Below, in pieces: positions 13,656 through 63,883 of a stretch of 64,000 bases of DNA. The notes below the pieces were generated by a model that did not search any database, was not told where the DNA came from, and saw nothing but the letters and a program-made list of their open reading frames with translations. Each line of letters starts with the position of its first letter. The first letter of the stretch is position 1. Location: NCBI GenBank assembly GCA_963823655.1, contig CAWGMK010000006.1:64001-128000 (forward strand), in the 5' to 3' direction. The translations under genes were made by a program, and so were the position numbers. Source of the DNA: an uncultured Bacillota bacterium (GTDB lineage: Bacteria; Bacillota; DTU025; MWDF01).

Positions 13656-16600
13656 TTGAGTTCAAGAAGACTAGCAATCATAGTTTTAGCAGCCATATTG
13701 GCGTTTTCAACGGCAGTGGCTGCCGCTCCGCCGACAATCAACCCGGATGAGGCTCTGAAAGCACTAGGCAAGCCCATGCTTTCCGTGAAACCGGAAGAGG
13801 AGGAGCCCTCCTTAGTAATTGAGGAGGTCAACACGACCGGGGCCAAGGACTGGAGGCCGGGAGCGCTGATCATCAGGCTTGATTCGGCCGCATCGGTCTC
13901 TTCGCTAGGCGGCGGGTTCGGCCTTGCGATCTCAAAGCTTGGAGGTTCAATCGAGCGCAATCTGGACATGAAGAACATGGCAGAGGGCGCGATTGCTTCC
14001 AGCGATGCCACTCTGCACTTCGTCTTTGCAAAATTCTCGGAGGATGCCGACGTTTTTGCACTGGCCGAAGAAGTGGGGAAGATCCCGGGTGTCTTGTATG
14101 CTGAACCTGACTACAGGATGTACCCCGACGCGGTAGCCCTGCCTCCCACAGATCCGGGCTACACGAGCGGAAGACAGTATTATCTGAACAACACAGCCGT
14201 ACCATATTATTCGACCCTGTTCGGCACTGCCGGCTCCGACCTTAAGGCGCCCGCAGGCTGGGAATTTCGCCAATAATGACTTCGGCCTAGACTGCTCATC
14301 TGTAGTAGTCGGGGTCATCGACCAGGGCGTAGCATTCTGGCATGCGGACCTAATAAACAATATGTGGGTGAACGAGGAAGAGTTTGAGGGCACCGAGGGC
14401 GTCGACGATGATGGCAATGGCTACATGGACGACGTCTACGGTTATAACTTCTATCATGACCTCGGCATCAACGATTATGCCAGCGGCTATTATCCTGCGA
14501 TGGATATGACTACCACGGAACCCACGTGGCAGGTACCATATCGGCCGAATGGAACGGCTGGGGCTCGGCAGGAACTGCACGCAATGCGAAGATAATGAGC
14601 CTTAAGTTCCTCGATGAGGGAGGCGGCTGGACTTCCGACGCCATAAGAGCCCTTGAGTATGCAGTTCTCATGGGAGCCGACCTTACAAGCAACAGCTGGG
14701 GCGGCGGCGAACCTGAGCAGTCGATGTCGGATGCTATTAAGAGCAAGCGGCATGCTGTTCGTCGCTGCTGCAGGAAACGACGGCAACAACAATGACTTCT
14801 TCGGTCACTATCCGTCGTCATATGCCAATCCGTCCTCGCCGTACTATTGCGAGAATATAATAACGGTTGCTGCGACGGACGCTAATGACAATCTAGTGTC
14901 GTTCTCCAACTACGGCCCGGAATCAGTACACGTAGCCGCTGCAGGCTTCTATGTGTATGCTTCCTACCCGTATTTCGACGGAGTAAATTACTTGTCATAT
15001 AAACGCATGGATGTCAGGCACATCAATGGCAACACCGCAGGTAAGCGCTGTAGCGGCGATGCTGATAGCACAGGACAAGATGCATGCAGCATACTCCTTC
15101 CCGCAGTATGACGACCCTGATCCCTCAGGGGACTGGGACACCGTCAAAGAGATAGTGCTTAACAGCGCCGAAAAAAAGGCACAGCTGGAAGGCTATGTGA
15201 GCACCGGCGGCAGGGTCAGCATGTACGGCGCGCTGACGATGCAAAGACTGGCAAGCGCATCGGCAATAACTGTCACCCCAGCGTTCAGCAATGAAATCCC
15301 GGTCAACATCAACGTTAGCGTAACTATTGACGGGGGCGACGCCAAAGCATCTGATATGCCCGGTATCGAGCACAGGTGGGAGTTGTGCTGGGCTGACGCC
15401 TTCTATCAGAGGGAGTCCACCGGCATCACGGCGACAGGCGTCATCCGCCACGCTTGTCGCAACGGAATACGGCTACTATGAGGTCAAGTATGAGATGTAT
15501 GACCTGGATCAATGATGTCGTCAATAACAACATCATATAAGCGGGTGATTATGGCACCGGAGGAAGCAGTCATTCTTGTCTTGGATGACCAGTGGTATGG
15601 CTACGAAGACATGTCATACATGGACTGGGCTGCGTTCTCCATTTACGGAGTACCGGTATTCTACAATAAGCCCGCCTATGGAAATCCCATATGACATACC
15701 CAATGTGGTATTCTGGACCACTACCTACACGACTAACGGCGTAATCAATGAAGAGGACGCACAGTGGTTGATCGGATTACCTAAAATACGGCGGAGGAAG
15801 GCTGCTGCTAGCAAGCTATGAGATGCTCAACATGATAGATGGCTATTACGGCGAGTCGGCTCTTTCGCAGGAGACGGCAGAAGAGCTGCTTGAGCTGTTG
15901 AAGGTCAAAGGATTACCTGACAGACTATACTTATGTTGAAGACAGGGACCCTGCCCCGTATGAGACGACGGTACCAGGTGGAAGGAGACAGCATAATCTG
16001 GGCCAATGAGCTGAGACTCGACCTCGAATATGACGCTGTGGGATCCGCGATATGCCCAACTACGGAGACGTCGTAACCGAATTCGGCCGGCGCATATCCG
16101 ATACTGCTGTCCCAATACGGCGGAGACAATCGACGAGCCCGAAAGAGCAGCCTCGGACTAAGCTATGCGGGCGATGACTACAGGCTGATATTCCTAGGCG
16201 CGCCGTTGGAAGCCATGCAGGGAACGGACTTACTTGTATGGCATTACTGGAGGGCCTTGGAGCGGCGATATATACAACTTCTTTGACTTCATGTGGTACA
16301 GCTGGGAATTCCTGATTGGCGAGGGTCCGGACAGGCTGGTCGGCTGGCTGGAGAACCCTGTTGCTGGAGGCACATATTCGAATCCTATTGATGTTGAGTG
16401 GGACATAATGGATTCCGAAGAGACCATACATGAGGCCAAGCTGTGGTACCGCAGTGAAGCCAACCCCTACTGGGAGCCCATAACCCTGTTCGTACCCGGT
16501 GAGGAATTCGGCTACATGTGGGACTTCGCGCACACCCTGGTGGGTGACGGCTATGAAGTGAAGCTCGAAGTAACCGACGCTAATGACCATACCCGCGTCG

Positions 16601-16905
16601 CTTACGACTTCGAAGCGCCGTTTGCGATTTGGCCCGCAAGCCCGACAGAAGGCGCGCGCACAGGCGTAGACAGCGAAAACGAAGAGATCATATTCTACGT
16701 CAACGCACTCAAACCGGGCACATTGTATGTGTATGACCTATCAGGAATACTCCTCTTCTCCGAGGAAGTCCCTGAGGGCATGAGCGAGATCACCTGGGAT
16801 ATGATGGTTAACGGATTGAGGATAGCCCGCGGCCTGTACGCGTTCAGGGTCGTCTACAATGACGGCAGCGCGTCCAAGACCGGTCGCTTCCTCGTCAACT
16901 TCTAG
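13656..16905 (+). CDS. Large secreted S8 subtilase (about 1050-1100 aa) with C-terminal T9SS type A/FlgD-Ig-like sorting domain; broken by about 10 or more frameshifts
   Basis: Signal peptide and prodomain (YAEPDY). Catalytic motifs across frames: VGVIDQGV, YHGTHVAGTI, AAGND, SGTSMATPQV. C-terminus GTLYVYDLSGILLF...ITWD...NGLRIARGLYAFRV...KTGRFLVNF. Confidence 0.8.
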
Positions 16906-16923: not shown

Positions 16924-17865
16924 ATGAACAGAAGGGCGACAATTATCCTCGTCATGGCCGTAATAATGGCCTTGGCAGCGGCAAGTTCTAGCATTGCCGC
17001 CGAGTACTGGGGCACCCTGCCCTCCCTTAAGCTGGGATACTCGGTCAGATCTGAAGGGATGGGAGGAGCCGGGCTGGCGCTTGCCGGAGACCTAAGTCTG
17101 TCAGGCCAGAACCCCGCAGCTCTGCCTACGACGGAATTCTTCACGCTATACACGACCTACACCTCGGTATATGCGACCAACGGAAAGTTCAGCGCAGTCT
17201 TCGGCGGCAAGTATGTAGGGCTGGCAGTTGATGTGCTGAGCGCCTCCGATGTCGAAATTACAGATCCTTACGGCGCGGTCATAGGCGTTGGCGATTATTA
17301 TGAAGGAAACGTCGCGCTTATGGGCGGCTACAGCTTCAAGCTGGGCACCAAGGGCTTCGTGGCCGTAGGCCTCGCAGCCAAGGGCCTAGGGCAGTTCATG
17401 CCGGAAGTCGAAGGCTACGGCGTGGCGCTCGACTTCGGCGCGCTCGCAAGGTACAACCTGGGCAAGGTCGGCCTGAGCGCGGCGTTCGTGCTCAGAAACG
17501 CTCCCGGCATCATCTGGTACCCCGGATCCGAAGAGCCGATGCCGGTACAAGCCTACCCTGAGCAGGGTGCAGAGATGGTCTTCCTGGAGATGGCTTACGC
17601 CGGCGGCGTAGCAGTGCATCTTCTGGATGACAAACTGGTAGTCGCAGTCGACGTCGACTCAGCAAGGGGCCTGTCAGGCGGCGTGGAGGGCAAGATATCC
17701 GTGCTAAGCCTCAGGGCCGGAGTCAACTGGTGGATGGACAGGCCGCTGTCGTTCTCCGCAGGTGCGGGCCTTGACCTCTGGAAGGGCTCAAGGTTCGACT
17801 TCTCCTATACCTATCTCCAGCACATGCCGGACAGGTACAGAGTAGGTCTGCTTATCGAGTTCTAG
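16924..17865 (+). CDS. PorV/PorQ (UPF0164, FadL-like) outer-membrane beta-barrel
   Basis: Signal peptide; N-terminal LKLGYSVRSEGMGGAGLALAGD..SGQNPAAL matches the PorV/FadL pattern aR..gMG..gvA...D.......NPA; amphipathic strands; terminal Phe (LLIEF). Confidence 0.8.
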   Translation: MNRRATIILVMAVIMALAAASSSIAAEYWGTLPSLKLGYSVRSEGMGGAGLALAGDLSLSGQNPAALPTTEFFTLYTTYTSVYATNGKFSAVFGGKYVGLAVDVLSASDVEITDPYGAVIGVGDYYEGNVALMGGYSFKLGTKGFVAVGLAAKGLGQFMPEVEGYGVALDFGALARYNLGKVGLSAAFVLRNAPGIIWYPGSEEPMPVQAYPEQGAEMVFLEMAYAGGVAVHLLDDKLVVAVDVDSARGLSGGVEGKISVLSLRAGVNWWMDRPLSFSAGAGLDLWKGSRFDFSYTYLQHMPDRYRVGLLIEF

Positions 17866-47128: not shown

Positions 47129-47141
47129 ACAGAGGGCTCAC

Positions 47142-48482
47142 ATGAAAGAGAATTCGCCGCTCATCGAAACGGCCCTTTCCGGTCAGCCTGCGAAGGCCGC
47201 ACCGGAAAGCCTAAGGCGCAGGAATTTGCGCAACAATTACAAATGGGCTGTAACTGACGGCATACTAGCTTATGTCTCCAGCGGCATGGTCCCGCCTTTC
47301 ATCGCCATCATGGCCCTGTCATATGGGGCCAGCAGCATCGGCCTTTCGATGCTTAGCCTGCTGCCGTCGCTTTTCAATACCCTGCTTTTCCTGCCTTTCG
47401 CCTCCCTTGCCGAAAGAGACGGGGGAGTCAAGCGGCTTGTTTTGCTCTCGGGCTATATAACAAGGTCGGTCTTCCTTCTAATGGCGTTCATCCCCTTCAT
47501 GCCTGCGGCATACAGGACGGGCCTTCTAATCGGCCTCAACGCCATGCAGGCCATTCCGGCAGTCCTATATTTGATAGTCTGGACCGACATGATGGGAGGC
47601 TCCTTCCCTCAAAGCGAGTGGGGGGCGGTCTTTTCAAGGCGCAACGCATATGCGAACTTCGCAGCTGTCGTGGGCACCCTTTCGGCGGGTTTCCTCATAG
47701 ACTGGCTGCCCGAAGGTTGGGGCTATTTCACCATTTTCATCATATCCGGCATTACCGGCCTTCTTTCCATCTATGCCCTTCAGCAGCTGAAGGAAGTGCC
47801 CACCTTGCATAAGCCCGCAAGGAAGCTGTCGCCTTTCAAAAGGCTCGCAATTCCTTTCTCCGACAAGGTGCTTGGCCGCAAGTTCGCCTACTTCTCATTG
47901 GGCCTGTTCCTGTACAACCTCGGCATATTCCTGTCGGGCCCTGCCTTCACCATTTTCTATGTGAAGGAGTTGGGGCTTTCCAAGGGAGTGATCAGCCTTC
48001 TTGTCACGACGGGCACCCTCTTTGTGGTAATAGCCTCCCCGTTCTGGGGGAAAGTGTCGAAGAAGAGGGGCAATGCACTCGTCTTCGCATATTCCACCAT
48101 CTGGCAGGCCCTCTTCCCATACTTCTTCTACTTGTCCGGGCACGACATCTACATGATGTTCGCCTGGCAGGCGATATTGGGCTTTGGCGTTGCCGGATAC
48201 AACCTCTCCATGTTCAATCTCGGGCTGGAGTATGTGGATGAGTCAGAGAGGCCGAACGGCATTGCAGTGACCAACACGGTAATCTTCTCCGCAGCGGCGA
48301 TCGGCTCGCTCATTGCAGGCCCTCTGACCAGCAAGTTTGGCATCGGGACGGCGTTTCTGGCGTCCACTATCGTGCGCCTTACGGGCTGGGCAGTATTCCT
48401 CGCTGTTTTTGAGCCGGCGAAGTTGATGGGGAAGGTATTGGGCAGGTTCGAGTCGAAGAATACAAGCAGGAGAAAGCAGTAA
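47142..48482 (+). CDS. MFS transporter
   Basis: About 12 hydrophobic helices in two halves; WGKVSKKRG loop. Confidence 0.8.
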   Translation: MKENSPLIETALSGQPAKAAPESLRRRNLRNNYKWAVTDGILAYVSSGMVPPFIAIMALSYGASSIGLSMLSLLPSLFNTLLFLPFASLAERDGGVKRLVLLSGYITRSVFLLMAFIPFMPAAYRTGLLIGLNAMQAIPAVLYLIVWTDMMGGSFPQSEWGAVFSRRNAYANFAAVVGTLSAGFLIDWLPEGWGYFTIFIISGITGLLSIYALQQLKEVPTLHKPARKLSPFKRLAIPFSDKVLGRKFAYFSLGLFLYNLGIFLSGPAFTIFYVKELGLSKGVISLLVTTGTLFVVIASPFWGKVSKKRGNALVFAYSTIWQALFPYFFYLSGHDIYMMFAWQAILGFGVAGYNLSMFNLGLEYVDESERPNGIAVTNTVIFSAAAIGSLIAGPLTSKFGIGTAFLASTIVRLTGWAVFLAVFEPAKLMGKVLGRFESKNTSRRKQ

Positions 48483-49244: not shown

Positions 49245-50939
49245 ATGCCGGCGATACTAACAGTACCGTCCGACTGCCGCGACTGCTATAAGTGCGTAAG
49301 GCACTGCCCTGTGAAGGCGATTAGAGTCGAAGGCAACCACACGGAGATAGACGAGCTGCTTTGCTTGACTTGCGGGGAATGCGTAAACGTCTGCCCTCAG
49401 CACGCCAAGATCGTCAGGGATGACAGGCAGGCCGTTCTGGATGCGCTCGCATCGGGCAAGAAGCTCGTGCTCTCGCTTGCCCCGTCATTCGCCTCCTCGT
49501 TTTCGAAGGAGGACGCGCCAAAGCTTATAGGCGCCGCCAAGCGCTTCGGCTTCTCATACATTTCGGAGACCTCGTCTGCGGCAGGGGCGGTGGCCATTGC
49601 GCACGCAAGATATGCAGATGAATTGGGCATCAGGCCGGTAATAGCGTCAGCATGCCCGGTGGTAGTGAACCTTGTTGAGAAGTACTATCCACACGCGGTA
49701 GGAAACCTCGCGCCTGTCGCCTCACCCATGATCGCCCACCTGAGGTGGCTGAAGGACAAGTTCGGCAAGGACTGCTTCACAGTTTTCGCAGGTCCCTGCA
49801 TCGCTAAGAAGCAGGAGGCCGAAAGGCCTGAGTACAAGGGGCTTGCAGATGCAGTGCTGACCTTCCAGGAGCTGCTGTCGGTCTTTTCCAAGCGCGGCAT
49901 AGAAGTAGGCGCATGCCTTCCTGTGAATGCAGACAACTCATCCCTTTCACACAAGGCGGCCAGGTCCTTCCCTCTTGAGGGGGGGCTCATTGACGCTGCG
50001 GGCAAAGGCGCCCTTAGGGATATCTCACTTACCGGAATCGAAGACTGCCGCGAGGCCCTGGAGCATCTGGAGGACTACTCAGATGTGAGGATACTGGAGC
50101 TTATGGCCTGCAGGGGCGGCTGCATATGCGGCTCAGCGGCGATGGAGGGGGCCGGCTGCTACAGAAGGCAGAGGCTTCTTGAGCAGTATTTGGGCATTAT
50201 GGGAGAAGCCGGCGCAGAAGATCCCTCAAGCTATGATACTTTAGCCTCTTACCAGGCCAAGGACGCGAGATGGCCCGAAGCCGACGAGGCGGAAATCGTA
50301 AAAGTGCTGGCCCTAACAGGCAAGTACAAGGCGGAGGATGAGCTCAACTGCGGGGCTTGTGGCTACTACAGCTGCAGGGAGAAGGCGAAGGCGGTAATTA
50401 GAGGTCTTGCGGAGCCTGAGATGTGCATGCCCTATATGAAGTCCAGGGCTGAGACCATGGGCAACCTGGTCGTCAACGAGACCCCCAACGGGATAATAGG
50501 GGTGAAGCCCGATTTGACTGTGGTTATGACCAATCCTGCGCTGTGCAGGCTTACCGGCTTGTCCGCCGACCAGCTTGTCGGCCGCATACTGCCTGACATC
50601 TTCGAGAGGGAGCCCTTCCTTGACGTGTTCGTCTCAAGGACGACCCTTATCAGGGAAGCGAAGGCCAACGCCGGCATACCGCGCTCCAAGGAGGCCTACT
50701 TCCATCTCCAGTCGAAGGACATGGTGGTCCTGCTCGTATCCGACCTTTCCGCAGAGCACAAGGACAAGGAGGCGCTCTCCAAAGTCAGGCGCGAGACCGC
50801 CGAGAAGGCAGGGCGCGTGATAGACAACCAGATCAGAGTCGCCCAGCAGGTGGCGGGCTTGATGGGAGAGGCGGCGGCCGAGACCAAGGTGCTGCTCTCA
50901 AAGCTTATCAAGCAGATGGAAGAGGGGTCGGATAAGTAA
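49245..50939 (+). CDS. hydS: Sensory group C [FeFe]-hydrogenase with FeS and PAS domains (HydS/HfsB)
   Basis: 2x[4Fe-4S]; divergent H-cluster motifs ASACP, GPCIAKK and ELMACRGGC; CGACGYYSC; PAS region. Confidence 0.88.
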   Translation: MPAILTVPSDCRDCYKCVRHCPVKAIRVEGNHTEIDELLCLTCGECVNVCPQHAKIVRDDRQAVLDALASGKKLVLSLAPSFASSFSKEDAPKLIGAAKRFGFSYISETSSAAGAVAIAHARYADELGIRPVIASACPVVVNLVEKYYPHAVGNLAPVASPMIAHLRWLKDKFGKDCFTVFAGPCIAKKQEAERPEYKGLADAVLTFQELLSVFSKRGIEVGACLPVNADNSSLSHKAARSFPLEGGLIDAAGKGALRDISLTGIEDCREALEHLEDYSDVRILELMACRGGCICGSAAMEGAGCYRRQRLLEQYLGIMGEAGAEDPSSYDTLASYQAKDARWPEADEAEIVKVLALTGKYKAEDELNCGACGYYSCREKAKAVIRGLAEPEMCMPYMKSRAETMGNLVVNETPNGIIGVKPDLTVVMTNPALCRLTGLSADQLVGRILPDIFEREPFLDVFVSRTTLIREAKANAGIPRSKEAYFHLQSKDMVVLLVSDLSAEHKDKEALSKVRRETAEKAGRVIDNQIRVAQQVAGLMGEAAAETKVLLSKLIKQMEEGSDK

Positions 50940-52105
50940 TGCCCGGCCTATACTTCGAGGCCTCATACTCCTCGCTTTTGAAACACGGGGAGCCCATATG
51001 CGGGGACAGGGCCGAGATAGTAAGGGCCCCGGGATCTTTGATGGCGGTGCTCTCGGACGGGCTTGGATCGGGCGTTAAGGCCTCTGTGCTGTCCACGCTT
51101 ACCACAAGGATAGCCTCCTACATGCTCAAAGAGGGCTCCAGCATAGACGAAGTCGTTGATACGGTGGGAAGGACGCTGCCAATATGCCAAGTGAGAGGCG
51201 TCGCCTATTCCACATTCTCGATAGTGCAGCTCTTCGAGGACGGCAGCGGCCACATAGTCGAGTACGACACCCCGGACGCATTCCTGTACAGGGCAGGGAC
51301 GGTTACCAAGATAGACACCGAGAAGAGGAAGGTAGCCGACAAGGAGGTCCTAGAGGGGAATTTCGAAGTCAGGGACGGCGACCACATCTTCCTGGTGACA
51401 GACGGAGTAATCCACGCGGGGCTGGGTGAAATACTGAACCTCGGCTGGCAGTGGGAGAACGTGGCGGAATACCTGAGGCGCACTGTCCCCAAGGCAAGAG
51501 GCGACAGCCTTCAGCTGGCAAGGTGGCTCACCGGCGTGTGCGACCAGTTCTATGGCGGAAAGCCGGGCGACGACACTACCGCAGTATGCATAGTGGCAAG
51601 GCAGCCCAGGTCCACAAGCGTGGCGATCGGGCCCCCCAGAAGCAAGGACCGCGACTCCGAGATGGTTAGGAAGTTCATGCAGAAGCCCGGAAGAAAGGTC
51701 ATCTGCGGAGGAGCCACCAGCAACCTTTTCGCTAGGGAGCTTGGTTGCGAAGTGGAAGTGGACCTTAACTCAGGCGGGGACGGCGTGCCGCCCATGGCCT
51801 CTATGAGGGGCATAGACCTGATAACTGAGGGGATAATAACCCTGACGAGGACCTTAGATATATTAGGCGCAGTCGACGCCGGCGAGCTGACGAAAGCCGG
51901 CATTACCGGAAGGGATGCGGCGTCGGTGCTGGCCAAGACATTGATGGAATCCGACAAGCTTGACTTCTTCATCGGGAGGGCGGAAAACGTCGCCCACACG
52001 GACGGTGCGTCGCTCGTGGACTACCGCTTCAAAGGGCAGGCGGTCGATGCGGTCGTCAGGATGATGAGGGCTTTGAACAAAGATGTAAGCGTTACATATT
52101 ATTGA
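50939..52105 (+). CDS. PP2C/SpoIIE-family Ser/Thr phosphatase (HfsC-like)
   Basis: CGD, LSDGLGSGVKA, TDG, PGDDTT. Confidence 0.88.
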   Translation: MPGLYFEASYSSLLKHGEPICGDRAEIVRAPGSLMAVLSDGLGSGVKASVLSTLTTRIASYMLKEGSSIDEVVDTVGRTLPICQVRGVAYSTFSIVQLFEDGSGHIVEYDTPDAFLYRAGTVTKIDTEKRKVADKEVLEGNFEVRDGDHIFLVTDGVIHAGLGEILNLGWQWENVAEYLRRTVPKARGDSLQLARWLTGVCDQFYGGKPGDDTTAVCIVARQPRSTSVAIGPPRSKDRDSEMVRKFMQKPGRKVICGGATSNLFARELGCEVEVDLNSGGDGVPPMASMRGIDLITEGIITLTRTLDILGAVDAGELTKAGITGRDAASVLAKTLMESDKLDFFIGRAENVAHTDGASLVDYRFKGQAVDAVVRMMRALNKDVSVTYY

Positions 52106-52130
52106 CCCTACCAAGGAGGTATGTCTCAAA

Positions 52131-52628
52131 ATGATCCAGGACCTGAGCTCAGCGAGGAAATTCGAGAAGATCAACGGAATCATCGAGAAGAACGGGAAGA
52201 GCCAGAGCGCCCTCATCCCGATACTTCAGGCAGTACAGTCAGAATACAGGTACCTGCCCGAGGAGATTCTCACCTACATCGCAACGGCGCTGGGCATCCC
52301 GACCGCCACAGTCTTCGGGGTGGCCACATTCTATGCCCAATTCTCATTGGAGCCCAAGGGAAAGCACGTAGTAAGAGTATGCGACGGCACAGCCTGCCAC
52401 GTTAGAGGCTCGATGCCCGTATATGAGGCGATAAGGAAGAAGGTCGGCCTGAAAGACGGCAAGTTCACGACCCAGGATCTGCGGTTCACGGTCGAGACTG
52501 TCGCCTGTTTGGGAGCTTGCGGACTTGCGCCTGTGCTCATGGTAAACGACAAGGTGTACGGCCAGATGACCGCGGAGGCGGCGGAGATAATCATCGACGC
52601 CCTTCTTGGCGAGGAGGGATTGGCATGA
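52131..52628 (+). CDS. hydC: Bifurcating hydrogenase NuoE-like subunit
   Basis: GVATFYAQF, CDGTACH, CLGACGLAP. Confidence 0.92.
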   Translation: MIQDLSSARKFEKINGIIEKNGKSQSALIPILQAVQSEYRYLPEEILTYIATALGIPTATVFGVATFYAQFSLEPKGKHVVRVCDGTACHVRGSMPVYEAIRKKVGLKDGKFTTQDLRFTVETVACLGACGLAPVLMVNDKVYGQMTAEAAEIIIDALLGEEGLA

Positions 52629-54511
52629 AAAGGATAGCTGACGCGATTGAGCTGAACATACTCTCCGAGGAGTACAAGGCGAGGCTCACCGGCTTCACCA
52701 GAAGGGCCTTCGTGTGTGTAGGCCCCGGCTGCATACTCTCCGGCGGAAACGAAGTGTATGAGGCCCTGCATGAGGGGCTGACGGCAAGGGGCATCAACGC
52801 GGAGTTCGACGGTGCGGAGCACAAGCACGGCATGAGCGCAAACACGGTAAAGACCGGATGCCACGGCTTCTGCGACATCGGTCCCTTAGTGCGCATTGAG
52901 CCTGAGGGCATAACCTATTGCCACGTAAAGCCTGAGGATGCGGGCGAGATAATCGACAGGACCATAATCGGCGGCGAGGTGGTCGAAAGGCTTCTCTACG
53001 TCGACCCTGTGACAGGCGCTCCCATAATCCACGAGTGCGAGATCCCCTTCTACAAGAGGCAGATCAAAGTGGCGCTCTCCGGCTGCGGCAAGGTCAATGC
53101 CGAGGATATAAGGGAATATATCGCTAACGGCGGCTATAAGGCGATGGCAAAGTGCCTGACAGAAATGGCGCCGAAGCAGGTTATAGATACAGTGCTGGAG
53201 TCGGGCTTAAGAGGAAGAGGAGGCGGAGGCTTCCCCACAGGCAGGAAATGGGGCTTTGCTGCTGCTTCGAATAGCGATATTAAGTACATGATCTGCAACG
53301 GCGACGAGGGGGACCCGGGCGCGTTCATGGACCGCGCCGTTATGGAGGGAGATCCTCACAGGGTCATCGAGGGCATGGTAATTGCCGGATACTCTTTCGG
53401 GGCGCAGCACGGCTACATCTACGTGAGGGCCGAGTATCCAATAGCCATCAAGCGGCTCAGAAAGGCGATAGACCAGGCTGAGGAAATTGGGCTTCTGGGC
53501 GATGACATATTGGGCTCCGGCTTCAGCTTCCATCTTAAGATAAAAGAGGGCGCCGGCGCCTTCGTTTGCGGCGAGGAGACCGCCCTCATGGCCTCAATAG
53601 AAGGCAGGAGGGGAATGCCAAGGCCGAGGCCTCCGTTCCCTGCGGTATCAGGGCTTTTCGGAAAGCCCACGACGATAAACAACGTCGAGACGCTGGCCAA
53701 TGTGCCCGACATCATCAACAAGGGGGCTGCCTGGTTCAAATCGATGGGCATACCCACAAGCACGGGCACGAAGACATTCGCCCTTACAGGCATGGTGAAC
53801 AATACCGGCCTTATCGAAATCCCTATGGGGACGACTTTAAGGGAGATCGTTTTCGAGATAGGCGGCGGCATCAGGGGCGGCAAGAAGTTCAAGGCCGTCC
53901 AGATAGGCGGGCCCTCGGGCGGCTGCCTGACAGAGGAACACCTGGATATGCCGCTTGATTACGACTCGCTCCAGAAGGTGGGAGCCATGGTGGGCTCTGG
54001 CGGAATGGTGGTCGTAGACGAGGGAACATGCATGGTCGAGATGGCCCGCTTCTTCATGAACTTCACCCAGAACGAATCTTGCGGAAAGTGCGTGCCATGC
54101 CGCGAGGGAACGAAGAGGATGCTGGAGCTGCTCACTAAGATAACCTCGGACAAAGCCGAGCTTAAGGACCTCGAGACGCTCGAGGACATCGCTATGGTGG
54201 TGAAGGACAGCTCCCTGTGCAATTTGGGCAAGACTGCGCCAAACCCCATACTTACGACATTCAAGTACTTCAAGCACGAGTACTACTCGCACATCACTGA
54301 CAGGGAGTGCCCGGCCGGCGTGTGCAAGTCCTTCAAATACTACGTAATACTGGATGAGCTCTGTAAAGGATGCGGGAAGTGCAAGAGGTACTGCCCGGTC
54401 GATGCCATTTCGGGCGAGCCGCGGCAGATGCACCACATAGACAGGGACACATGCATAAAGTGCGGGGCCTGCCTGGAATCTTGCGCTTTCAAGGCGATAA
54501 TCATAAGGTGA
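52625..54511 (+). CDS. hydB: Bifurcating hydrogenase NuoF-like FMN/NAD subunit
   Basis: GRGGGGFPTG, CNGDEGDPGAFMDR, CGEETAL, ESCGKCVPCREG, C-terminal 2x[4Fe-4S]. Confidence 0.93.
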   Translation: MKRIADAIELNILSEEYKARLTGFTRRAFVCVGPGCILSGGNEVYEALHEGLTARGINAEFDGAEHKHGMSANTVKTGCHGFCDIGPLVRIEPEGITYCHVKPEDAGEIIDRTIIGGEVVERLLYVDPVTGAPIIHECEIPFYKRQIKVALSGCGKVNAEDIREYIANGGYKAMAKCLTEMAPKQVIDTVLESGLRGRGGGGFPTGRKWGFAAASNSDIKYMICNGDEGDPGAFMDRAVMEGDPHRVIEGMVIAGYSFGAQHGYIYVRAEYPIAIKRLRKAIDQAEEIGLLGDDILGSGFSFHLKIKEGAGAFVCGEETALMASIEGRRGMPRPRPPFPAVSGLFGKPTTINNVETLANVPDIINKGAAWFKSMGIPTSTGTKTFALTGMVNNTGLIEIPMGTTLREIVFEIGGGIRGGKKFKAVQIGGPSGGCLTEEHLDMPLDYDSLQKVGAMVGSGGMVVVDEGTCMVEMARFFMNFTQNESCGKCVPCREGTKRMLELLTKITSDKAELKDLETLEDIAMVVKDSSLCNLGKTAPNPILTTFKYFKHEYYSHITDRECPAGVCKSFKYYVILDELCKGCGKCKRYCPVDAISGEPRQMHHIDRDTCIKCGACLESCAFKAIIIR

Positions 54512-54524
54512 GGAGGCAATTTCG

Positions 54525-56546
54525 ATGCCAGTTAACGGATATGTATCGGTAGACAACATCAAAGTACCCCTGGAAGGGGAGGACAGCCTCCTCAAGATAG
54601 TGCGCAAGGCGGGCATAGACCTTCCCACCTTCTGCTACCACTCCGAGCTTTCCACATACGGCGCCTGCCGCATGTGCGTAGTCGAAGTCGACAGGATGGG
54701 CGTCGTCGCCTCCTGCTCCGTGCCGCCTGCAGATGGCATGGTGGTAAGGACGAACACGGAGAGGCTCAGGAAGATAAGAAAGACCATACTTGAGCTGCTT
54801 CTGGCAAACCACGACCGCGAGTGCACGACTTGCGGAAAGTCCAGCCAGTGCAAGCTGCAGGAGCTGTCGGAGCGCTTCGCGGTGTCAACGCTCAGGTTCG
54901 GCCACGGCGACAAGAAGTACCCGATAGACTCCAGCACACCCGGCATAGTGCGCGATCCCAACAAGTGCATACTCTGCGGCGACTGCGTGAGGATGTGCGC
55001 GGAAGTGCAGGGCGTCGGCATCCTGGACTTCGCTTTCAGAGGGTCCAAGAGCATGGTGGGCCCCGCGTTCGGCAAAGAACTTGTCGACGTGGACTGCGTG
55101 CAGTGCGGGCAGTGCACTACAGTATGCCCGACCGGTGCTCTCATGGTGAAAAGCTGCACAGCAGAGGTATGGAAGGCCATAGACGACCCGAAGAAAAAGG
55201 TGATAGCCCAGATAGCCCCCGCCGTAAGGGTGGCGCTGGGAGAGGAGTTCGGCATGCAGCCGGGCTCCATCGTCACAGGCAAGATAGTGGCAGCCCTCAG
55301 AAGGCTCGGCTTCGATATGGTGTTCGACACCAGCTTCACAGCCGACCTTACTATCATAGAGGAGGGCAATGAGTTCATATCCAGGCTTAAAAGCGGCGGA
55401 GTGCTGCCGCAGTTCACATCCTGCTGCCCAGGTTGGGTGAAGTATGTAGAGCAGTACCACCCCGAGCTCATACCCAACGTCTCCTCGTGCAAATCGCCGC
55501 AGCAGATGTTCGGGTCCGTAATAAAGAAGTACCTGGCCAAGGACATGGGATGGGATCCTAAGTCGGTATCGGTTGTGTCGATAATGCCCTGCATAGCGAA
55601 GAAGTTCGAGGCCGAAAGGCCGGAATTCGCCCACGACGGGGCCAAAGACGTGGACTTCGTGCTGACGACCAGGGAACTGGCAAGGATGATCAAAGAGGCC
55701 GGCTTCAGCTGGGACGACCTTGAGGTAGAATCCTTCGATGTGCCGCTAGGGCTGGGATCAGGCGCCGGCATGATATTCGGCAACACCGGTGGGGTGACCG
55801 AGGCGGTGCTTCGCTCGGCACAGCAGCTTTTAGGCCTGGGCACCGACTCGAAGATAATATACAACGAGGTAAGAGGCCTTGAGGGGATAAAAGAGGCTTC
55901 GGTCAACCTCGACGGCATAGAGCTGAACTTAGCGGTAGCCAACTCTCTATCTGCTGCAGAGAGCCTAATCGACAGAATGAAGGCCGGCGGCAAAGCATAT
56001 CACCTGATAGAGGTAATGGCGTGTCCCGGCGGATGCATAGGCGGCGGCGGCCAACCGATAGCGTCCGAGCCCGACTTCAGGCAGAAGAGGGCCAAGGGCC
56101 TCTACGATGTGGACAAGGGCCAGATGCTAAGAAGGTCGCACGAGAACCCGTATATTACGGACCTGTATGACAGGCATCTGGGAGGAGCCAACTCTCATGA
56201 GGCACATGGTTCGCTTCACACATCCTATGGACACAGGAAGAGAATAACGGGCGGGGACATCAATGTAATGGTAAGCGAGGGCAAGCGCGAAGGCACAGTT
56301 GAAGTGGCCGTATGCCTTGGAACGTCATGTTATCTCAAGGGCAGCTACAATATAATGCACGCTCTGATGAACAGGATTTCCGAGATGGGGCTGGCCGACA
56401 GGATCAATCTGCACGGGACTTTCTGTTTCGAAAACTGCCACGAATCCCCTTGTGTGAAAGTGGACGGCAAGGTAAAGGGGTATATGGGAGAGTCGGACGT
56501 AGTAGACAGCATCATAGAGGAGAGGATACTTCCTCTTCTCGGCTGA
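54525..56546 (+). CDS. hydA: Group A3 [FeFe]-hydrogenase catalytic subunit with C-terminal [2Fe-2S] domain
   Basis: FTSCCPGW, MPCIAKKFE, EVMACPGGCIGGGGQP; terminal CLGTSC...CFENC. Confidence 0.95.
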   Translation: MPVNGYVSVDNIKVPLEGEDSLLKIVRKAGIDLPTFCYHSELSTYGACRMCVVEVDRMGVVASCSVPPADGMVVRTNTERLRKIRKTILELLLANHDRECTTCGKSSQCKLQELSERFAVSTLRFGHGDKKYPIDSSTPGIVRDPNKCILCGDCVRMCAEVQGVGILDFAFRGSKSMVGPAFGKELVDVDCVQCGQCTTVCPTGALMVKSCTAEVWKAIDDPKKKVIAQIAPAVRVALGEEFGMQPGSIVTGKIVAALRRLGFDMVFDTSFTADLTIIEEGNEFISRLKSGGVLPQFTSCCPGWVKYVEQYHPELIPNVSSCKSPQQMFGSVIKKYLAKDMGWDPKSVSVVSIMPCIAKKFEAERPEFAHDGAKDVDFVLTTRELARMIKEAGFSWDDLEVESFDVPLGLGSGAGMIFGNTGGVTEAVLRSAQQLLGLGTDSKIIYNEVRGLEGIKEASVNLDGIELNLAVANSLSAAESLIDRMKAGGKAYHLIEVMACPGGCIGGGGQPIASEPDFRQKRAKGLYDVDKGQMLRRSHENPYITDLYDRHLGGANSHEAHGSLHTSYGHRKRITGGDINVMVSEGKREGTVEVAVCLGTSCYLKGSYNIMHALMNRISEMGLADRINLHGTFCFENCHESPCVKVDGKVKGYMGESDVVDSIIEERILPLLG

Positions 56547-59854: not shown

Positions 59855-62800
59855 ATGAGGCGCTTGCTTCCGCTTACTATCGTTATTGCCCTGCTGTTAA
59901 CAATTCCCAACGCCGCTTCGGCCAAGCTCACGCTAACAGGCGAGAGCATATGGAGGCTCGGCTACGGAAGCAGGTATTATTCCACATACGGCTGGAAGCT
60001 CGGGCTTGGCGGTTTCCTTGCCTCTCAGGAGATCAGGCTGGATGTTACCGGCGAGATCATCGACGGCCTGTTCCTGGAAGCCCATATCGACAACACCAAA
60101 GGGGATCTATTCCAGCAGCTGGTCGTAAGCCTGGACTGGAGAGGGCTATGGGCAAAAGGCGGCAATATCGTATATGAGCCTGCCAACGCGCTGCTTAGCA
60201 GGCCGAAAACTGCGATCATGGGCATTTCGGCAGGTTTTAAAGGCGAGAAGTTCGCGGCCTTCGCAATCGGCGGCATATCGTCCGGCAGCAAAGGCAGCAA
60301 AGTCTTCAAAGGCGCAACGGCGCAGGAGTCCATAGAATATGTGTCGGGCGGCCCGTACCTGCCTTCCAGGGGCAAATCCGGCCTTCAGGGTGCGCTAGAA
60401 GGCTTATGGCAGTCGGCGACCGGCGCCGAGTTCGACCCCGCCTTCGACAAAGGAGGAGCCCTCTTTGCAGAAAGCTCCTCGTACGGTGAGCTTTCGGACT
60501 TCCTCGGAGCAAATTCGCTGGGATTCCTGGTCAATGGGGCGGCGAACCCGGACGGGACGCTAACTGCCGGGGAATTTGTAAACGGCGCCGGCGTCGACGG
60601 CTTGTCGGGTGTAAGCGGAGCATATATCGTCCTGAAGGAGCTGCCCCAGGCAATCATAAGGGGTATGCTTGTTGATCTAATAAGGCAATACAACGAGAAT
60701 TTAGGGCTTTCCGGGGGCGCGGCAGCCAAGTATCCGTACATCGCAGGAAGCCAGACCGATACCGAGTTCCTTTCCAGCCTGCTTGAAGGCTGGGTAAGCT
60801 TTGCGACCGCTTCCAAGGCAACAGGGGAAGTCATCGCATCGGCCCCATTCACGGCCTTTTCCAGGGGGCTCATCTATCCGCTCGGGTTCACAGACGTGCT
60901 TGCGGACACTCTCACGGTGACTGCGGTAGCTCTGACAGGCACGCAGATACCCCTTATCGCGGTCCCGGGCGCCAACTGGGTCTGCTATGAGGACAGGGGC
61001 TATATCGAAATGGTCCTTCCGGTTGATTTCACCGCCACCTACTCATATATCAGGGCAGCCTTCAGCTACAGGCTGGCACAGGGGCTCTATTTCCTGGGCG
61101 GCGGCATAATCAGGGGAAGCCTGTCTGTAAGGCTCGACGGCAAGCTTCTATATGCGGGGACCGATTACGAGATAGATTACGAGACCGGCATACTTATGCT
61201 CATGGTAACTGCTTCAGACGGGGCAGAGGGGCTGCTGGAGGTTGAATACGAGTTCGCAAAGCCGGGGTCGAAGGCATGGATTGCGGCCGTCGGCGCCTCA
61301 TATTCGCCGGCTAATGATCTGAAGATATCTTTAGAGTACAGCTACGGCTCGGATGCACCATACCTTGCCGAGGACGAGACGACGGTCTCCAGGGAAAGAA
61401 GCTATGAGCATCTGATTGCCGCCTGGGCGGATTGGCGCCTGGCAGATGGGCTGAAACTGTCCGCAGGCGCGTCATTTAGCGCTTCGGTTTTCCCGGGCGA
61501 CTCGTCGCTGAGGGATAACGACTACAACAGGATAAGGTATATCGAAGCACTCGAGGACAACGCAGGGGGCATATGGTGGGCGTTCGCCCATTCGGCAGGT
61601 GTTAGGGTCCTCTCCCCGTACGGTGGAGGATGGTCCGATCTGAGGATGCCCGGCTCATTTGCAGGGGTCCCGGTAAACGGCGCATCACACGACTCGGGCA
61701 TATGGTATTTCGCGACTGACGCGGGGCTTGCCATGCTAGATGCCGACTATATCGGATACGGCGAGGGCTTTGCCGATGTGGTATCGCTTTGGAAGACGGC
61801 AGGGACCAAGGACGGCCTTCCCAGCCGCCTGATTTCGTCAGTCTCAATTAGCATGGGCTCGCTTTTTGCGGGGACTCCGGTAGGACTAGTCGAAGGCCAG
61901 CTGGACCTTGAAGGTCCCTGGACGCTTCACAGGGGCTCAGAGCATCCTGAACTTGGAGACGGCGTTATCTCAGGGCTTGCTCCAATTGCCTCCGGATTGC
62001 TTATCTCCTGCGGTGATTCGATTGCCTATTACGACGGGCTTGTCTTCCAGCAGATATTAGCCGAAGGGGCTCAATCTTTGAAATCGGCCCAGCTGGATAG
62101 CGGCTTGTCGGCGGTCGCTGCCACAGAGAACGGCGCAATTGTAATCGGACCGGCACTCGAAATTGAAAGGATCGGCTCAGGCAGGCATCTCACATCGGCG
62201 GCCGGCTCGGGCGTCTTCGTATTCTATACCTCTGAAGACGGGCTCTTCGCCTATGATCTGGACGGCGAAATAGAAGTCGCGCTGCATTCGGGCTCGGCGA
62301 TGGAGGCCGTCGGCACTGACGGCATCGATATATACGCGGGCGGCATGGCTGACGAGCTTTACGCCATAACTCTGCTCAGGCTCGACTACCCGGCAGGCGA
62401 GATACAGGAGATCGGGCAGCTCGAACACGGCATAAACGGCAGGGACAGGGCCCATTACCTAATAAAGGACCCGTCTGAGAACACTGCAATCGGCGCCGGC
62501 GGCTACATCTCACTTGGATACGATTCCTCGGCATTCGACGCTGAGGCTGTCCTTAAGGCCAGGGGGGCGGGAAGCCTGGCCGGCATGGGGCCGGGTAAGG
62601 CGGATTCTGCTTCTGCGTCCTTGAAGCTCGTATGGAAGCCGACGGGGACCCTTTCGGTCAATTTCCTGGAAATCTTGGAATTGAATAAGCTCTTCAGTTA
62701 CGTCAAAACAGAGGAGCCGATGGTGCTTTCCAACACAGTGCAAGCTGGCCTTGGCTGGAACGGGCCCGTCACGCTTAACCTGCTTACCAGCTATATAGTG

Positions 62801-63883
62801 AGCAAGGGCTTCGGAGAATTCGCCCTGCCATTGAACCAGACTGTGAGCGGCAGCGCCAATCTGCAGTACAGTATAGGCCCGTTGAGGCTTGCCGGCTCAC
62901 TAAGCGCCTCATACAGGCTTGCCGAAGGTTTCGATCCCTATGCCTCGGCAGGGGCGACGGCTGCGCTCTATTTGCAGGCAGGAAAGAATACGTCGATTAG
63001 CCTAAGCTATGGTGAACCCAAACCGTTCGGATCCCTGCTTGCGCCGTCCGGCAATTACAGGTCGCTTGCAGGCAACATACGATATTCGGCATACATGACC
63101 TACGGCAGCCTTACGGCATCTGCCAGGGGAAGCTACAAGTGGGACGTCAGGAACGTCGCGGATACCGCGGATTTAAGCGCAAGCCTCATCTATGCTGCAA
63201 GGCAGATAAAGCTGTTCGGCGCAAGCTTCATTCCCAGGACCGAGCTGACCCTCTCCTACCTGATGCCATTGGGGGCGGACAGCAGGATATCGGCCTTTAC
63301 GAAGCTGTCGGCAGGTACTAGCATCGGAATCTTCGGCATGGACGCAAGCTATTGGCACAAACTGACCTATATGATCGAATCCGGAAGGCTGACCAACGCA
63401 GGCGAGGCGTCGATTACGGGCTATCTCAGCAAGGCCGGCTGGAAGCTCAGGCCCTCATTGCAGCTGGGGGCGGCTTATACTCTGGAAACTCCGAACATGG
63501 GGGAGACGGCGGGTACTTGGAAGGCAAGCGCGAAGTTTTCCCTGTCCAGCGCGGGCACCGTTCCCAACCTGGCGTCGGCGAGCTACGCATACAGCAGCTT
63601 AAAAGGCGGCAGGCACGATATCGGCCTGTCCGATTCATTTAGTTTCAGCATGCTGGAGGGAAGGCTCGGCTTCGGCGCTGGGGTAAACGCCAATATGGGG
63701 CTTCTGCCACTTAGCCTCGCCTCATCCTCATACAAGGCGGCAATTAACGCCAGCATAAGCTACAAGTTCGACAAGAGCTGGTCGGGAAGCCTGCTGGGCG
63801 AAGTCGGGCTGGGTTCATCTGCCCTTTATGATGATCCTAAGCTGCTGTACGGCTTTGAGTTGAAAATTACACTGAAGTTCTAG
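59855..63883 (+). CDS. SprA-like large outer-membrane beta-barrel with inserted beta-propeller
   Basis: Signal peptide; SprA-like segments SQEIRLDVTGEI..LEAHID, GNIVYEPANALLS..IMGISAGF and GSLSVRLDGKLLYAGTDYEIDYETGILML; propeller blades WYFATDAGL and DGLPSRLISSV..LFAGTPVGL; long amphipathic strand series ending LKITLKF. Confidence 0.65.
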   Translation: MRRLLPLTIVIALLLTIPNAASAKLTLTGESIWRLGYGSRYYSTYGWKLGLGGFLASQEIRLDVTGEIIDGLFLEAHIDNTKGDLFQQLVVSLDWRGLWAKGGNIVYEPANALLSRPKTAIMGISAGFKGEKFAAFAIGGISSGSKGSKVFKGATAQESIEYVSGGPYLPSRGKSGLQGALEGLWQSATGAEFDPAFDKGGALFAESSSYGELSDFLGANSLGFLVNGAANPDGTLTAGEFVNGAGVDGLSGVSGAYIVLKELPQAIIRGMLVDLIRQYNENLGLSGGAAAKYPYIAGSQTDTEFLSSLLEGWVSFATASKATGEVIASAPFTAFSRGLIYPLGFTDVLADTLTVTAVALTGTQIPLIAVPGANWVCYEDRGYIEMVLPVDFTATYSYIRAAFSYRLAQGLYFLGGGIIRGSLSVRLDGKLLYAGTDYEIDYETGILMLMVTASDGAEGLLEVEYEFAKPGSKAWIAAVGASYSPANDLKISLEYSYGSDAPYLAEDETTVSRERSYEHLIAAWADWRLADGLKLSAGASFSASVFPGDSSLRDNDYNRIRYIEALEDNAGGIWWAFAHSAGVRVLSPYGGGWSDLRMPGSFAGVPVNGASHDSGIWYFATDAGLAMLDADYIGYGEGFADVVSLWKTAGTKDGLPSRLISSVSISMGSLFAGTPVGLVEGQLDLEGPWTLHRGSEHPELGDGVISGLAPIASGLLISCGDSIAYYDGLVFQQILAEGAQSLKSAQLDSGLSAVAATENGAIVIGPALEIERIGSGRHLTSAAGSGVFVFYTSEDGLFAYDLDGEIEVALHSGSAMEAVGTDGIDIYAGGMADELYAITLLRLDYPAGEIQEIGQLEHGINGRDRAHYLIKDPSENTAIGAGGYISLGYDSSAFDAEAVLKARGAGSLAGMGPGKADSASASLKLVWKPTGTLSVNFLEILELNKLFSYVKTEEPMVLSNTVQAGLGWNGPVTLNLLTSYIVSKGFGEFALPLNQTVSGSANLQYSIGPLRLAGSLSASYRLAEGFDPYASAGATAALYLQAGKNTSISLSYGEPKPFGSLLAPSGNYRSLAGNIRYSAYMTYGSLTASARGSYKWDVRNVADTADLSASLIYAARQIKLFGASFIPRTELTLSYLMPLGADSRISAFTKLSAGTSIGIFGMDASYWHKLTYMIESGRLTNAGEASITGYLSKAGWKLRPSLQLGAAYTLETPNMGETAGTWKASAKFSLSSAGTVPNLASASYAYSSLKGGRHDIGLSDSFSFSMLEGRLGFGAGVNANMGLLPLSLASSSYKAAINASISYKFDKSWSGSLLGEVGLGSSALYDDPKLLYGFELKITLKF

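Follow-up and report, generated by a model that had tools for sequence, protein, structure and literature searches.

The open reading frame (ORF) at 59855..63883 of the window, which is the whole stretch of 64,000 nucleotides analysed here, probably codes for an outer-membrane translocon serving a reduced T9SS-like export pathway in diderm Bacillota. The relationship of its product to SprA is supported by sequence profiles, the predicted fold, gene context and co-occurrence across genomes. The functional reading is decided by gene context: homologues in sister families are preceded by genes for CTD cargo (giant S8 subtilases) and for PorV/PorQ-family proteins. The host belongs to the Bacillota and not to the Bacteroidota, and it is diderm as judged by a BamA homologue in its genome (178.6 bits, E 7.7e-53; under the curated cut-off of 297.15 bits). 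By contrast, Abby 2016 (PMC4793230) counted the T9SS in 60 of 97 genomes of Bacteroidetes and in none elsewhere, and reviews and surveys confine it to one phylum.

The ORF starts with ATG, has an SD-like GGGGGTG 7 nt upstream and encodes 1342 aa followed by a stop codon; there are no internal stops, and the 4-kb frame is intact as claimed in the original prediction. The ORF was present in no RNA run, which is evidence neither way. Its length relative to SprA, predicted to be about one half, is 1342 aa vs. 2403 aa. Unlike SprA, the window protein has no long periplasmic N-terminal extension, and it is small because this N-terminus and most of the extracellular inserts of SprA are absent. From the translation, the protein ends in ...KITLKF, i.e. 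in a C-terminal Phe. Its features are the following:

59855..63883, + strand: whole ORF, compact SprA-family outer-membrane protein (profiles, model, Foldseek)
59855..59923, + strand: predicted signal peptide, residues 1-23 (translation, ...PNAASA/KL)
59924..60277, + strand: predicted barrel strands 1-7, residues 24-141, holding motif 1 (parse; DSSP; aligned to SprA 163-264)
60278..61273, + strand: cap insert between strands 7 and 8, ~330 residues of mixed alpha/beta structure (alignment, parse, model)
61085..61207, + strand: SprA signature stretch GS..V.L.G..L..G.DY.IDYE.G, residues 411-451 (TIGR04189; 9/9 homologues; SprA 6h3i residues 696-808)
61274..61489, + strand: predicted barrel strands 8-11, residues 474-545 (parse; model E448-462 to E509-521)
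61490..62491, + strand: insert between strands 11 and 12, with a core (residues 556-849, 61520-62401) forming a 7-bladed Reg_prop-type propeller (profile, model)
62492..63880, + strand: predicted barrel strands 12-36, residues 880-1342, to the C-terminal Phe (parse, models, weak SprA-barrel match)

We compared the family with SprA/Sov of Flavobacterium johnsoniae (PDB 6h3i, 6h3j, 8gl6, 8gl8; NCBIfam TIGR04189). The family profile matched SprA 6h3i/6h3j in the PDB at E 3.5e-9, and hhalign aligned it over 520 columns (Prob 99.8, E 3.6e-28) to 20 SprA-family proteins, which themselves match solved SprA at E 6e-52. Homology extends over the N-terminal 560-580 residues, in which the first strands, the DY.IDY..G signature and the cap insert lie, and is concentrated in these N-terminal strands and in the cap insert, which is not part of the barrel; for the C-terminal barrel, the alignment with SprA-family barrels is collinear but weak (E 6.9e-5). 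Both SprA-like motifs of the original prediction were found in place. The first, at 60020-60325 (residues 56-157), falls within the 520-column alignment, and family profile positions 57-153 align to SprA 6h3i residues 163-264, a match that is weak alone (i-E 4.4). The second, at 61085-61204 (residues 411-450), is recovered by TIGR04189, which matches residues 417-451 with HMM positions 603-637 (E 0.0011; 16.2 bits, far under the curated cut-off of 200 bits). The same HMM region was matched in 9/9 homologues scanned, with E-values of 1.8e-4 to 4.8e-10 and scores of 18.8-37.3 bits that are likewise under the cut-off, and Pfam SprA_N (PF14349) had no match in the window protein at E <= 10.

A search with the N-terminal profile returned 105 cluster representatives at E <= 1e-30, a number by which the architecture is not rare; TIGR04189 was present in 18 of 20 spread hits of this search, with three above the cut-off. 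Because the current database names of the family are only 'hypothetical protein' or 'two-component regulator propeller domain-containing protein', it has been overlooked by genome annotation. The family shares a collinear N-terminus with metagenomic SprA-family proteins of 1550-1930 aa (TIGR04189 145-243 bits), which are also shorter than SprA; unlike the family, these proteins have another insert of ~390 columns with weak CBM_11 hits at the propeller position, and a split with full support places the two groups apart in the tree of the N-terminal region (20 rows vs. 82).

The AlphaFold2 model of the window protein (residues 25-1224; pLDDT 88.3) had SprA chains as Foldseek hits 1-3 (E 7.6e-17 to 1.1e-14), and for the model of a propeller-less homologue (L017; pLDDT 89.0), in which the region matching the signal peptide forms a helix that leads into a linker of low pLDDT, SprA occupied ranks 1-4 (TMq 0.48-0.59). 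In a VIA alignment of this homologue model, 867/1035 residues superpose on SprA with an rmsd of 6.3 A, spanning SprA 133-2401, i.e. from residue 133 to the C-terminus. Parsing the strands from the hp-alternation profile gave 36 strands (7+4+25), whose connections alternate strictly between short and long; the count may be 38, with two further short strands next to the cap insert. The parsed strands are seen in the DSSP of both models, with strands 1-7 at E2-13 to E109-118 of the window model (numbering +24) and, for strands 12-36, 19 strands as far as residue 1224, where the window model ends, and 25 in the whole homologue model. The barrel strands predicted up to the terminal Phe are likewise present in the DSSP strings of both models. 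The likely strand number by this parse, 36, is the one given for SprA in Lauber 2024.

The cap insert is conserved with SprA-family proteins, and its length is kept among relatives (median 322, range 296-363); the second insert is a 7-bladed propeller that replaces the largest insert of SprA. A Reg_prop-type propeller had been placed at 61525-62440 (residues 557-862), and it is supported by profile and model, with seven blades in the model: the family profile matches the propellers of the BT4663 sensor 4a2l (E 4.4e-15), 3v9f (1.7e-9) and 3ott (2.5e-6), and model residues 556-849 align to 7-bladed propellers over 261 residues (Z ~26, rmsd 2.7 A). Pfam Reg_prop (PF07494) had no match in the window protein alone at E <= 10, and relatives scored 15.2-20.3 bits, below the gathering score of 20.4 bits. 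The propeller is present in 73-74/76 full-length relatives examined; L017 is a natural variant without it.

PorZ is a T9SS surface protein with two Reg_prop propellers. The propeller described here belongs to the same repeat family as those of PorZ and of the HTCS sensors BT4663 (4a2l) and BT4673 (3ott); unlike PorZ, it is a single propeller inside a barrel loop and not a free-standing protein, and relatives gave weak hits to the PorZ HMM (best E 3.2e-7) that failed its cut-off (29-34 vs. 260 bits). Both ~330-residue inserts fall in the long-loop register of the topology parse, and they are probably extracellular in the modelled topology, closing or decorating the pore on its outer face. The original prediction proposed that the propeller may act as plug or cargo receptor; its placement in this extracellular register speaks against a periplasmic plug.

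The window also contains a candidate cargo gene and a candidate carrier gene:

13656..16905, + strand: S8 subtilase gene, candidate cargo, split over several frames in the assembly (orthologue, CTD profiles)
16573-16902, + strand: T9SS type-A-like CTD, the 110 C-terminal residues of the subtilase (TIGR04183)
16924..17865, + strand: PorV/PorQ-family outer-membrane barrel of 313 aa, candidate carrier (NF033709; f4 homology)

The barrel protein matches NF033709 over residues 31-309 of 313 (E 6.7e-15; 55.5 bits, under the 90-bit cut-off) and is a homologue of the PorV-family gene product encoded beside the SprA-like gene in family f4, in which the orthologue at L011:6805-7707 passes the cut-off (108.9 bits vs. 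90). Similarly, the CTD of the subtilase scores 16.8 bits with TIGR04183, under the 23-bit cut-off (TIGR04183 / PF18962); orthologous tails pass it (L011 26.0, L058 24.1, L060 29.1 and L063 24.3 bits), Pfam Por_Secre_tail scores 29.1 on L065, above 27, and the best PDB match of the lineage CTD profile is the PorU CTD (E 0.006). The subtilase, the sole cargo gene found in the source genome, is broken in the assembly; it has an intact 1136-aa orthologue in a genome of the same genus, and its region carries at least 12 single-base indel differences to the contigs of relatives.

In the source genome, ~42 kb separate the SprA-like gene from the pair of cargo and PorV-like genes. In family f4, the three genes are together, in the order S8/PKD protease with CTD, PorV-family gene and SprA-like gene (L011); the same triad is found in L056, L059, L060 and L061 and, by tblastn, in L012, L018, L030, L032, L033, L035 and L040. 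Moreover, in one genome (G012) each of the CTD proteins (8/8) is followed by one of eight PorV-family genes, and PorV-family genes occur in 21/24 genomes with a SprA-like match vs. 32/377 genomes without. As with SprA/Sov, the genetic links of the SprA-like gene are to a PorV-family protein and CTD cargo, and this genomic evidence suggests that the SprA-like pore acts together with a carrier of the PorV type and cargo bearing a CTD. In the Bacteroidota, as described in the account of Gorasia 2022 (PMC9143113), type-B CTD cargo proteins have adjacent PorP/SprF-like genes. The pairs in G012 resemble these in having one carrier for one cargo; unlike them, they combine a type-A CTD (TIGR04183 / Por_Secre_tail) with a partner of the PorV/PorQ family and not PorP/SprF. 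Separately, weak leads to the same module were noted in Armatimonadota and Rifleibacteriota.

We suggest the following route. Cargo proteins, each ending in a beta-sandwich domain of T9SS type A, would reach the periplasm via Sec; this cargo would be one large S8 subtilase in the source organism, and up to eight giant subtilases together with PKD/Ig proteins in sister genomes. It would enter a very wide beta-barrel of the SprA type, with about 36 strands, from its periplasmic end, and the PorV/PorQ-family barrel, encoded directly after each cargo gene, may take up the CTD at the pore barrel and carry or hold the cargo at the cell surface. Unlike in the T9SS with SprA/Sov, GldL, GldM and GldN were not found (0/21 genomes for each, and none in the host's own genome) and neither was the catalytic domain of PorU, matches to which cover only the CTD part; all these searches were run without a positive control. 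PorP/SprF (TIGR03519) was not found in the host's own genome, in a search likewise run without a positive control. A tentative proposal is that diderm Firmicutes have a three-gene module, in which no motor (GldL, GldM) or ring (GldN) protein was detected and which would consist of a CTD cargo, its dedicated PorV-like carrier and a propeller-capped 36-strand SprA-type pore.

Alternatively, the SprA-type translocon is not self-sufficient, and a trans-envelope energiser that went unrecognised, either a very divergent GldLM-like motor or a stator of the Ton/Tol/Mot type, gates the pore and powers cargo release; the system would then be a full T9SS analogue with missing pieces and not a minimal system. 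We consider this possible but rather doubtful. The canonical T9SS requires its motor, and in Flavobacterium removal of the motor traps the substrate on the translocon, according to the experiments described in Lauber 2024; divergent GldL, GldM and GldN could be missed because the searches had no positive control; and MotA/ExbB-family genes are present in 4/4 genomes searched (G000, G012, G273, G072). However, these genes are unlinked to the triad, and no further conserved neighbour was found beside the triad in the loci inspected from f4, f56, f88 and f112.

It is unlikely that the protein is a SprA-derived giant barrel in another role, for example a wide pore for peptide or glycan uptake or a tether for the envelope or S-layer, in which the propeller would be an outer binding module and the link to the CTD would reflect surface anchoring and not transport. 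In HTCS sensors, Reg_prop propellers serve as modules that bind ligands (the title of 4a2l refers to heparin-sensing BT4663), the Deinococcus SlpA barrel ranks next after SprA by fold (E 8.6e-9, TMq 0.32), and in the source genus the SprA-like gene sits with SpoIID, GerM and DegV genes, away from cargo. By contrast, SprA superposes end to end and SlpA over only 476 residues (rmsd 11.7 A), the cargo-PorV-SprA-like order is kept across several families with strong co-occurrence, and subtilases of 1100-3200 aa, large and folded, must cross the outer membrane by some route.

Finally, a chance similarity to SprA in a generic large barrel, such as LptD, an usher, a TonB-dependent barrel or MtrB, is most improbable. 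The score with the curated SprA HMM is tiny, and in a Foldseek-independent search with the homologue model many barrels reached Z 15-21 (MtrB 21.4) and SprA (Z 17.6) was tied with many porins and set apart only by its aligned length (882) and rmsd (6.7 A). However, the matches to the other barrels extend over 240-420 residues with rmsd 11-16 A vs. 867-882 residues at 6.3-6.7 A for SprA, LptD has a TMq of only 0.16-0.18, and the homology at E 3.6e-28 is mainly in the cap insert and N-terminal strands. The original prediction named as its refutation a fold matching LptD, usher or TonB-dependent barrels with no similarity to SprA; the results contradict this, with alignments to such barrels of just 285-480 residues (rmsd 11-16 A).

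With a SprA-family pore, matching PorV-family carriers and type-A CTD cargo present in diderm Bacillota, the T9SS core reaches into the Terrabacteria. For the abundant uncultured protein degraders of digesters and sediments, the pathway is the likely export route of their giant surface subtilases. At 1035-1342 aa, the family is also a much smaller object for work on SprA-type gating, including the role of energy input. If the proposal of a three-gene module is true, SprA, PorV and CTD would form a core that is an autonomous secretion device and that is older or more mobile than the T9SS of the Bacteroidota, with GldLM/KN as a later add-on, and the system would provide a simple means of studying cargo release by SprA-type pores in the absence of external power.

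The reading frame of the SprA-like gene is unbroken, as had been proposed for it, and is followed by a tRNA gene that runs off the window.

Features at the end of the window
59855-63883, + strand: SprA-like open reading frame, intact, 1342 aa
63946-64000: tRNA (Rfam RF00005, 37.8 bits), beginning 63 nt past the SprA-like stop codon and truncated by the window end

A Shine-Dalgarno-like GGGGGTG lies 7 nt 5' of the ATG, and 39 nt separate the gene from the DegV gene upstream. The N terminus of the product resembles a signal peptide, and the translation ends in ...KITLKF; an ending of this type is typical of outer-membrane barrels. A Pfam scan of the 1342-aa protein gave nothing significant, promoter and terminator scans stayed at chance level, and an Rfam scan of the window returned only the tRNA at its end. 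No RNA data set was listed as containing the gene, a result that is neutral as evidence. In the same genus, the gene order HydA, SPOR protein, SpoIID, GerM, DegV, SprA-like and V-ATPase subunit I was found at 4/4 loci. By reading of translations, the window would carry a multi-subunit [FeFe]-hydrogenase cluster at 49245-56546, with an Fe-S/PAS-like protein and an ORF for a SpoIIE-like phosphatase before it and the SPOR-SpoIID-GerM-DegV genes downstream.

Positions 603-637 of TIGR04189, the NCBIfam model of SprA, matched residues 417-451 of the protein (16 bits, E 0.0011; cut-off 200 bits), and the same model region was matched by 9/9 scanned homologues with E down to 4.8e-10. Moreover, a profile of 17 members of the compact family, i.e. 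this protein and its homologues, retrieved Flavobacterium johnsoniae SprA (6h3i/6h3j) from the PDB at E 3.5e-9 over two collinear stretches, profile 57-153 with SprA 163-264 and profile 426-542 with SprA 696-808; these are the two places at which the original prediction had seen SprA-like motifs. Among 1.84 billion representatives, a profile of the first 565 residues had 2528 matches with E <= 1e-3, of which 725 reached <= 1e-10 and 105 reached <= 1e-30. TIGR04189 was present in 18 of 20 proteins sampled down this list, three of the 20 (1682-1926 aa) passing its cut-off. An alignment of 20 SprA-family proteins (A5) matched solved SprA at E 6e-52, and the compact family matched A5 profile-to-profile over 520 columns, covering about residues 17-600 of the SprA-like protein (Prob 99.8, E 3.6e-28). 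The 180 residues just past the propeller matched, weakly and in the right order, the barrel downstream of the large insert that A5 itself carries (Prob 63, E 6.9e-5). In total, and judged by these profile comparisons, the SprA likeness of the protein exceeds chance.

In a FastTree phylogeny built from 632 columns of the N-terminal region in 102 rows, a fully supported branch splits the side of the compact family (82 rows) from 20 SprA-family rows. Of the 82 rows, 44 are relatives from outside Bacillota. The 82-row side includes six members of 1545-1730 aa as well as two propeller-less members, and this pair nests within the compact family. A third tier of large barrels with a C-terminal Phe (P0093, P0104, P0109, P0111, P0115, P0123 and others; 880-1780 aa) matches the N-terminal profile only by a module of ~60 residues, DY.IDY..G, in 4-7 copies per protein; this module also weakly matches the phage distal-tail/tail-tube models DUF2460, TIGR02217 and NF052337.

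Residues 25-1224 of the window protein were folded with a 76-row alignment (pLDDT 88.3, pTM 0.75), as was, over its full 1035 aa, a natural propeller-less homologue from a different family of this phylum (L017; pLDDT 89.0, pTM 0.76). In Foldseek searches of the PDB, SprA chains took ranks 1-3 for the window model (E 7.6e-17 to 1.1e-14, TMq 0.39-0.40) and ranks 1-4 for the L017 model (E 3.8e-15 to 1.3e-9, TMq 0.48-0.59); for the latter, Deinococcus SlpA (TMq 0.32), TonB-dependent receptors (0.17-0.19) and LptD (0.16-0.18) came after SprA. VIA-align superposed 867/1035 residues of L017 on SprA 8gl6_A with an rmsd of 6.3 Å and Z 20.1, spanning SprA 133-2401. In a search with the L017 model independent of Foldseek, MtrB reached Z 21.4 vs 17.6 for SprA, which was level with many porins; the Z-score by itself does not single out SprA, and this speaks against a straightforward interpretation. 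In the same search, SprA aligned over 882 residues at 6.7 Å, and the other barrels over 240-420 residues at an rmsd of 11-16 Å. A second VIA search, with the window model, listed propellers alone and was uninformative on the barrel. An LptD, usher or TonB-dependent barrel without similarity to SprA, the outcome named beforehand as contradicting the SprA assignment, was not what the models gave: SprA ranks first with Foldseek, and these identities were rejected on their short alignments and low TMq.

The topology was parsed from hydrophobic alternation and indels in a 76-sequence profile.

Parsed topology of the SprA-like protein (predicted)
residues 24-141: 7 barrel strands
residues 142-473: insert of about 330 residues
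residues 474-545: 4 barrel strands
residues 546-879: propeller insert
residues 880-1342: 25 barrel strands

By this parse, the barrel would have 36 strands and match the number in SprA. SprA has 36 strands according to Lauber 2024 (PMC10994853). The 35 connections alternate strictly, with medians of 1-6 residues in one register vs 5-20 residues in the other, which also has the two large inserts (Mann-Whitney p 3e-7), a test that is partly circular because we set the strand boundaries ourselves. The register of short connections is assigned to the periplasm because the termini are taken as periplasmic; both inserts would accordingly be placed by the parse on the extracellular side, where SprA carries its cap. 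DSSP of both models assigned strands where the parse has them, among them the full set of 25 past the propeller site in the whole L017 model, and added two short polar strands (145-163) and one (460-467) beside the first insert. As for the strand count that the original prediction had proposed to take from AlphaFold, the total is probably 36 and could be 38 if the short flanking strands are counted.

The propeller that had been read from the translation was recovered by two routes. The family profile matched the Reg_prop sensor propellers BT4663 (4a2l, E 4.4e-15), 3v9f and BT4673 (3ott), and residues 556-849 of the AlphaFold2 model matched 7-bladed propellers (Z about 26, rmsd 2.7 Å, 261 residues). 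The PorZ model gave weak matches to relatives, the best at E 3.2e-7 and far under cut-off. An insert of 250-420 residues occupies the propeller site in 73-74 of 76 full-length relatives and is lacking in two. In the profile alignments, its position along the sequence is that of the largest insert of SprA. The propeller could serve as a cap, a gate, a binder of glycan or LPS, or a cargo receptor.

Uncultured 'Bacillota' or 'Clostridia' MAGs are the source of the related loci. The window genome (2.3 Mb, 13 contigs, 97% complete) encodes a BamA homologue (178.6 bits, E 7.7e-53). The SprA-like protein was found in 6/6 genomes of the same genus, in 1/1, 0/1 and 10/12 genomes of the three other families of the order, and in 1/20 further families sampled. 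Across the phylum, the N-terminal profile matched 24 of 401 sampled genomes, 20 of them over the whole profile. The ESM Atlas has no model for P0001 or P0019; look-alikes in the Atlas hint at Armatimonadota and Rifleibacteriota as feature-based leads only, and one 1406-aa Atlas cluster bears the automatic name 'SprA N-terminal domain-containing protein'. The single-contig genome G273, of another family, has two longer SprA-like copies of 1677 and 1686 aa (L056, G273:C1:598000-617000; L057, 1944000-1963000), one of which forms a triad with a PorV-family gene and a cargo gene for an M6 metalloprotease. Like G273, the genomes G394 and G179 are single contigs, and all three may be isolates.

Two genes precede the SprA-like gene in the sister family f4. 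The first encodes an S8 subtilase of 1289 aa that has PKD domains and a T9SS type-A C-terminal cargo domain (CTD; TIGR04183 26.0 bits, cut-off 23), and the second encodes a PorV/PorQ-family barrel (NF033709 108.9 bits, cut-off 90). This order of cargo, PorV-family and SprA-like gene was found at L056 (M6 metalloprotease), L059 and L061 (S8) and L060 (1958-aa PKD protein), and at L058 the cargo-PorV pair lies 11 kb away from the pore gene. By tblastn, a CTD tail was detected upstream of the pore gene at L012, L018, L030, L032, L033, L035 and L040, and downstream at L029. The CTD-tail profile of the lineage contains PNPAS, GLY and RLVISR-type motifs. In the sister genome G012 (L011, L064-L070), 8 CTD proteins were detected by profile, each directly before one of 8 PorV-family genes; 6/8 are S8 subtilases of 1289-3217 aa and 2/8 are PKD/Ig proteins. 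The G012 subtilases have up to 8 PKD domains, and contig C1 has four of the cargo-PorV pairs inside a 40-kb stretch. Finally, PorV_fam (E <= 1e-8) was detected in 21/24 genomes with a SprA-like match vs 32/377 without, counts in which related genomes are not independent.

The window itself carries a cargo-PorV pair about 42 kb upstream of the SprA-like gene.

Cargo-PorV pair in the window
13656-16905: pieces of an S8 subtilase in several frames
16573-16902: CTD tail of the subtilase (TIGR04183 16.8 bits, under cut-off)
16924-17865: PorV-family gene (NF033709 55.5 bits, E 6.7e-15, under cut-off)

A phmmer search of the PDB with the PorV-like protein gave no match at E <= 1. In a genome of the same genus, the orthologue of the subtilase is an intact ORF of 1136 aa, and short-read contigs of related strains differ from the window copy by at least 12 single-base indels, e.g. 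at 14260, 15978, 16128 and 16243; the fragmentation reflects either assembly error or gene decay. ORF 46312-47145 begins like ThyX (flavin-dependent thymidylate synthase, read by eye), and its basic low-complexity sequence from midway suggests a further frameshift in the window assembly. Directly past the PorV-like gene are two outer-membrane barrel genes, 18013-18612 (199 aa; weak OMP_b-brl match, 27.3 bits vs a gathering score of 28.7) and 18635-20251 (538 aa; ending in ...GISFRL, no family assigned). At L062, in the same genus, the PorV-like gene is also followed by the 199-aa barrel gene and not by the 538-aa one.

GldL, GldM and GldN were each found in 0/21 genomes, and neither GldM nor PorP/SprF was found in the window genome; these searches had no positive-control genome and the results are to be read as 'not found' rather than 'absent'. 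The PorV equivalog model had no match in the window genome, and matches to PorU were confined to its C-terminal CTD part, none above cut-off. MotA/ExbB-family genes are present and are unlinked to the triad.

Abby 2016 (PMC4793230) detected T9SS in Bacteroidetes only, and a 2026 review still calls the system single-phylum. Among the literature matches listed, none described a SprA-type pore from Firmicutes; nor did these matches include a report of a system of this kind in diderm Firmicutes, Limnochordia, Negativicutes, Synergistota, Armatimonadota or Terrabacteria. Relatives of the pore are publicly annotated either as 'two-component regulator propeller domain-containing protein' or as 'hypothetical protein'; in sister genomes, existing NCBI models would already put names to the PorV-family and CTD partners, so that the picture is partly latent in annotation. 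Altogether, the most likely function of the SprA-like protein is that of outer-membrane translocon in a minimal T9SS-like pathway. This pathway would export CTD-tagged giant proteases, each with its own PorV-like carrier, to which, since no sortase was found, the cargo may remain attached.
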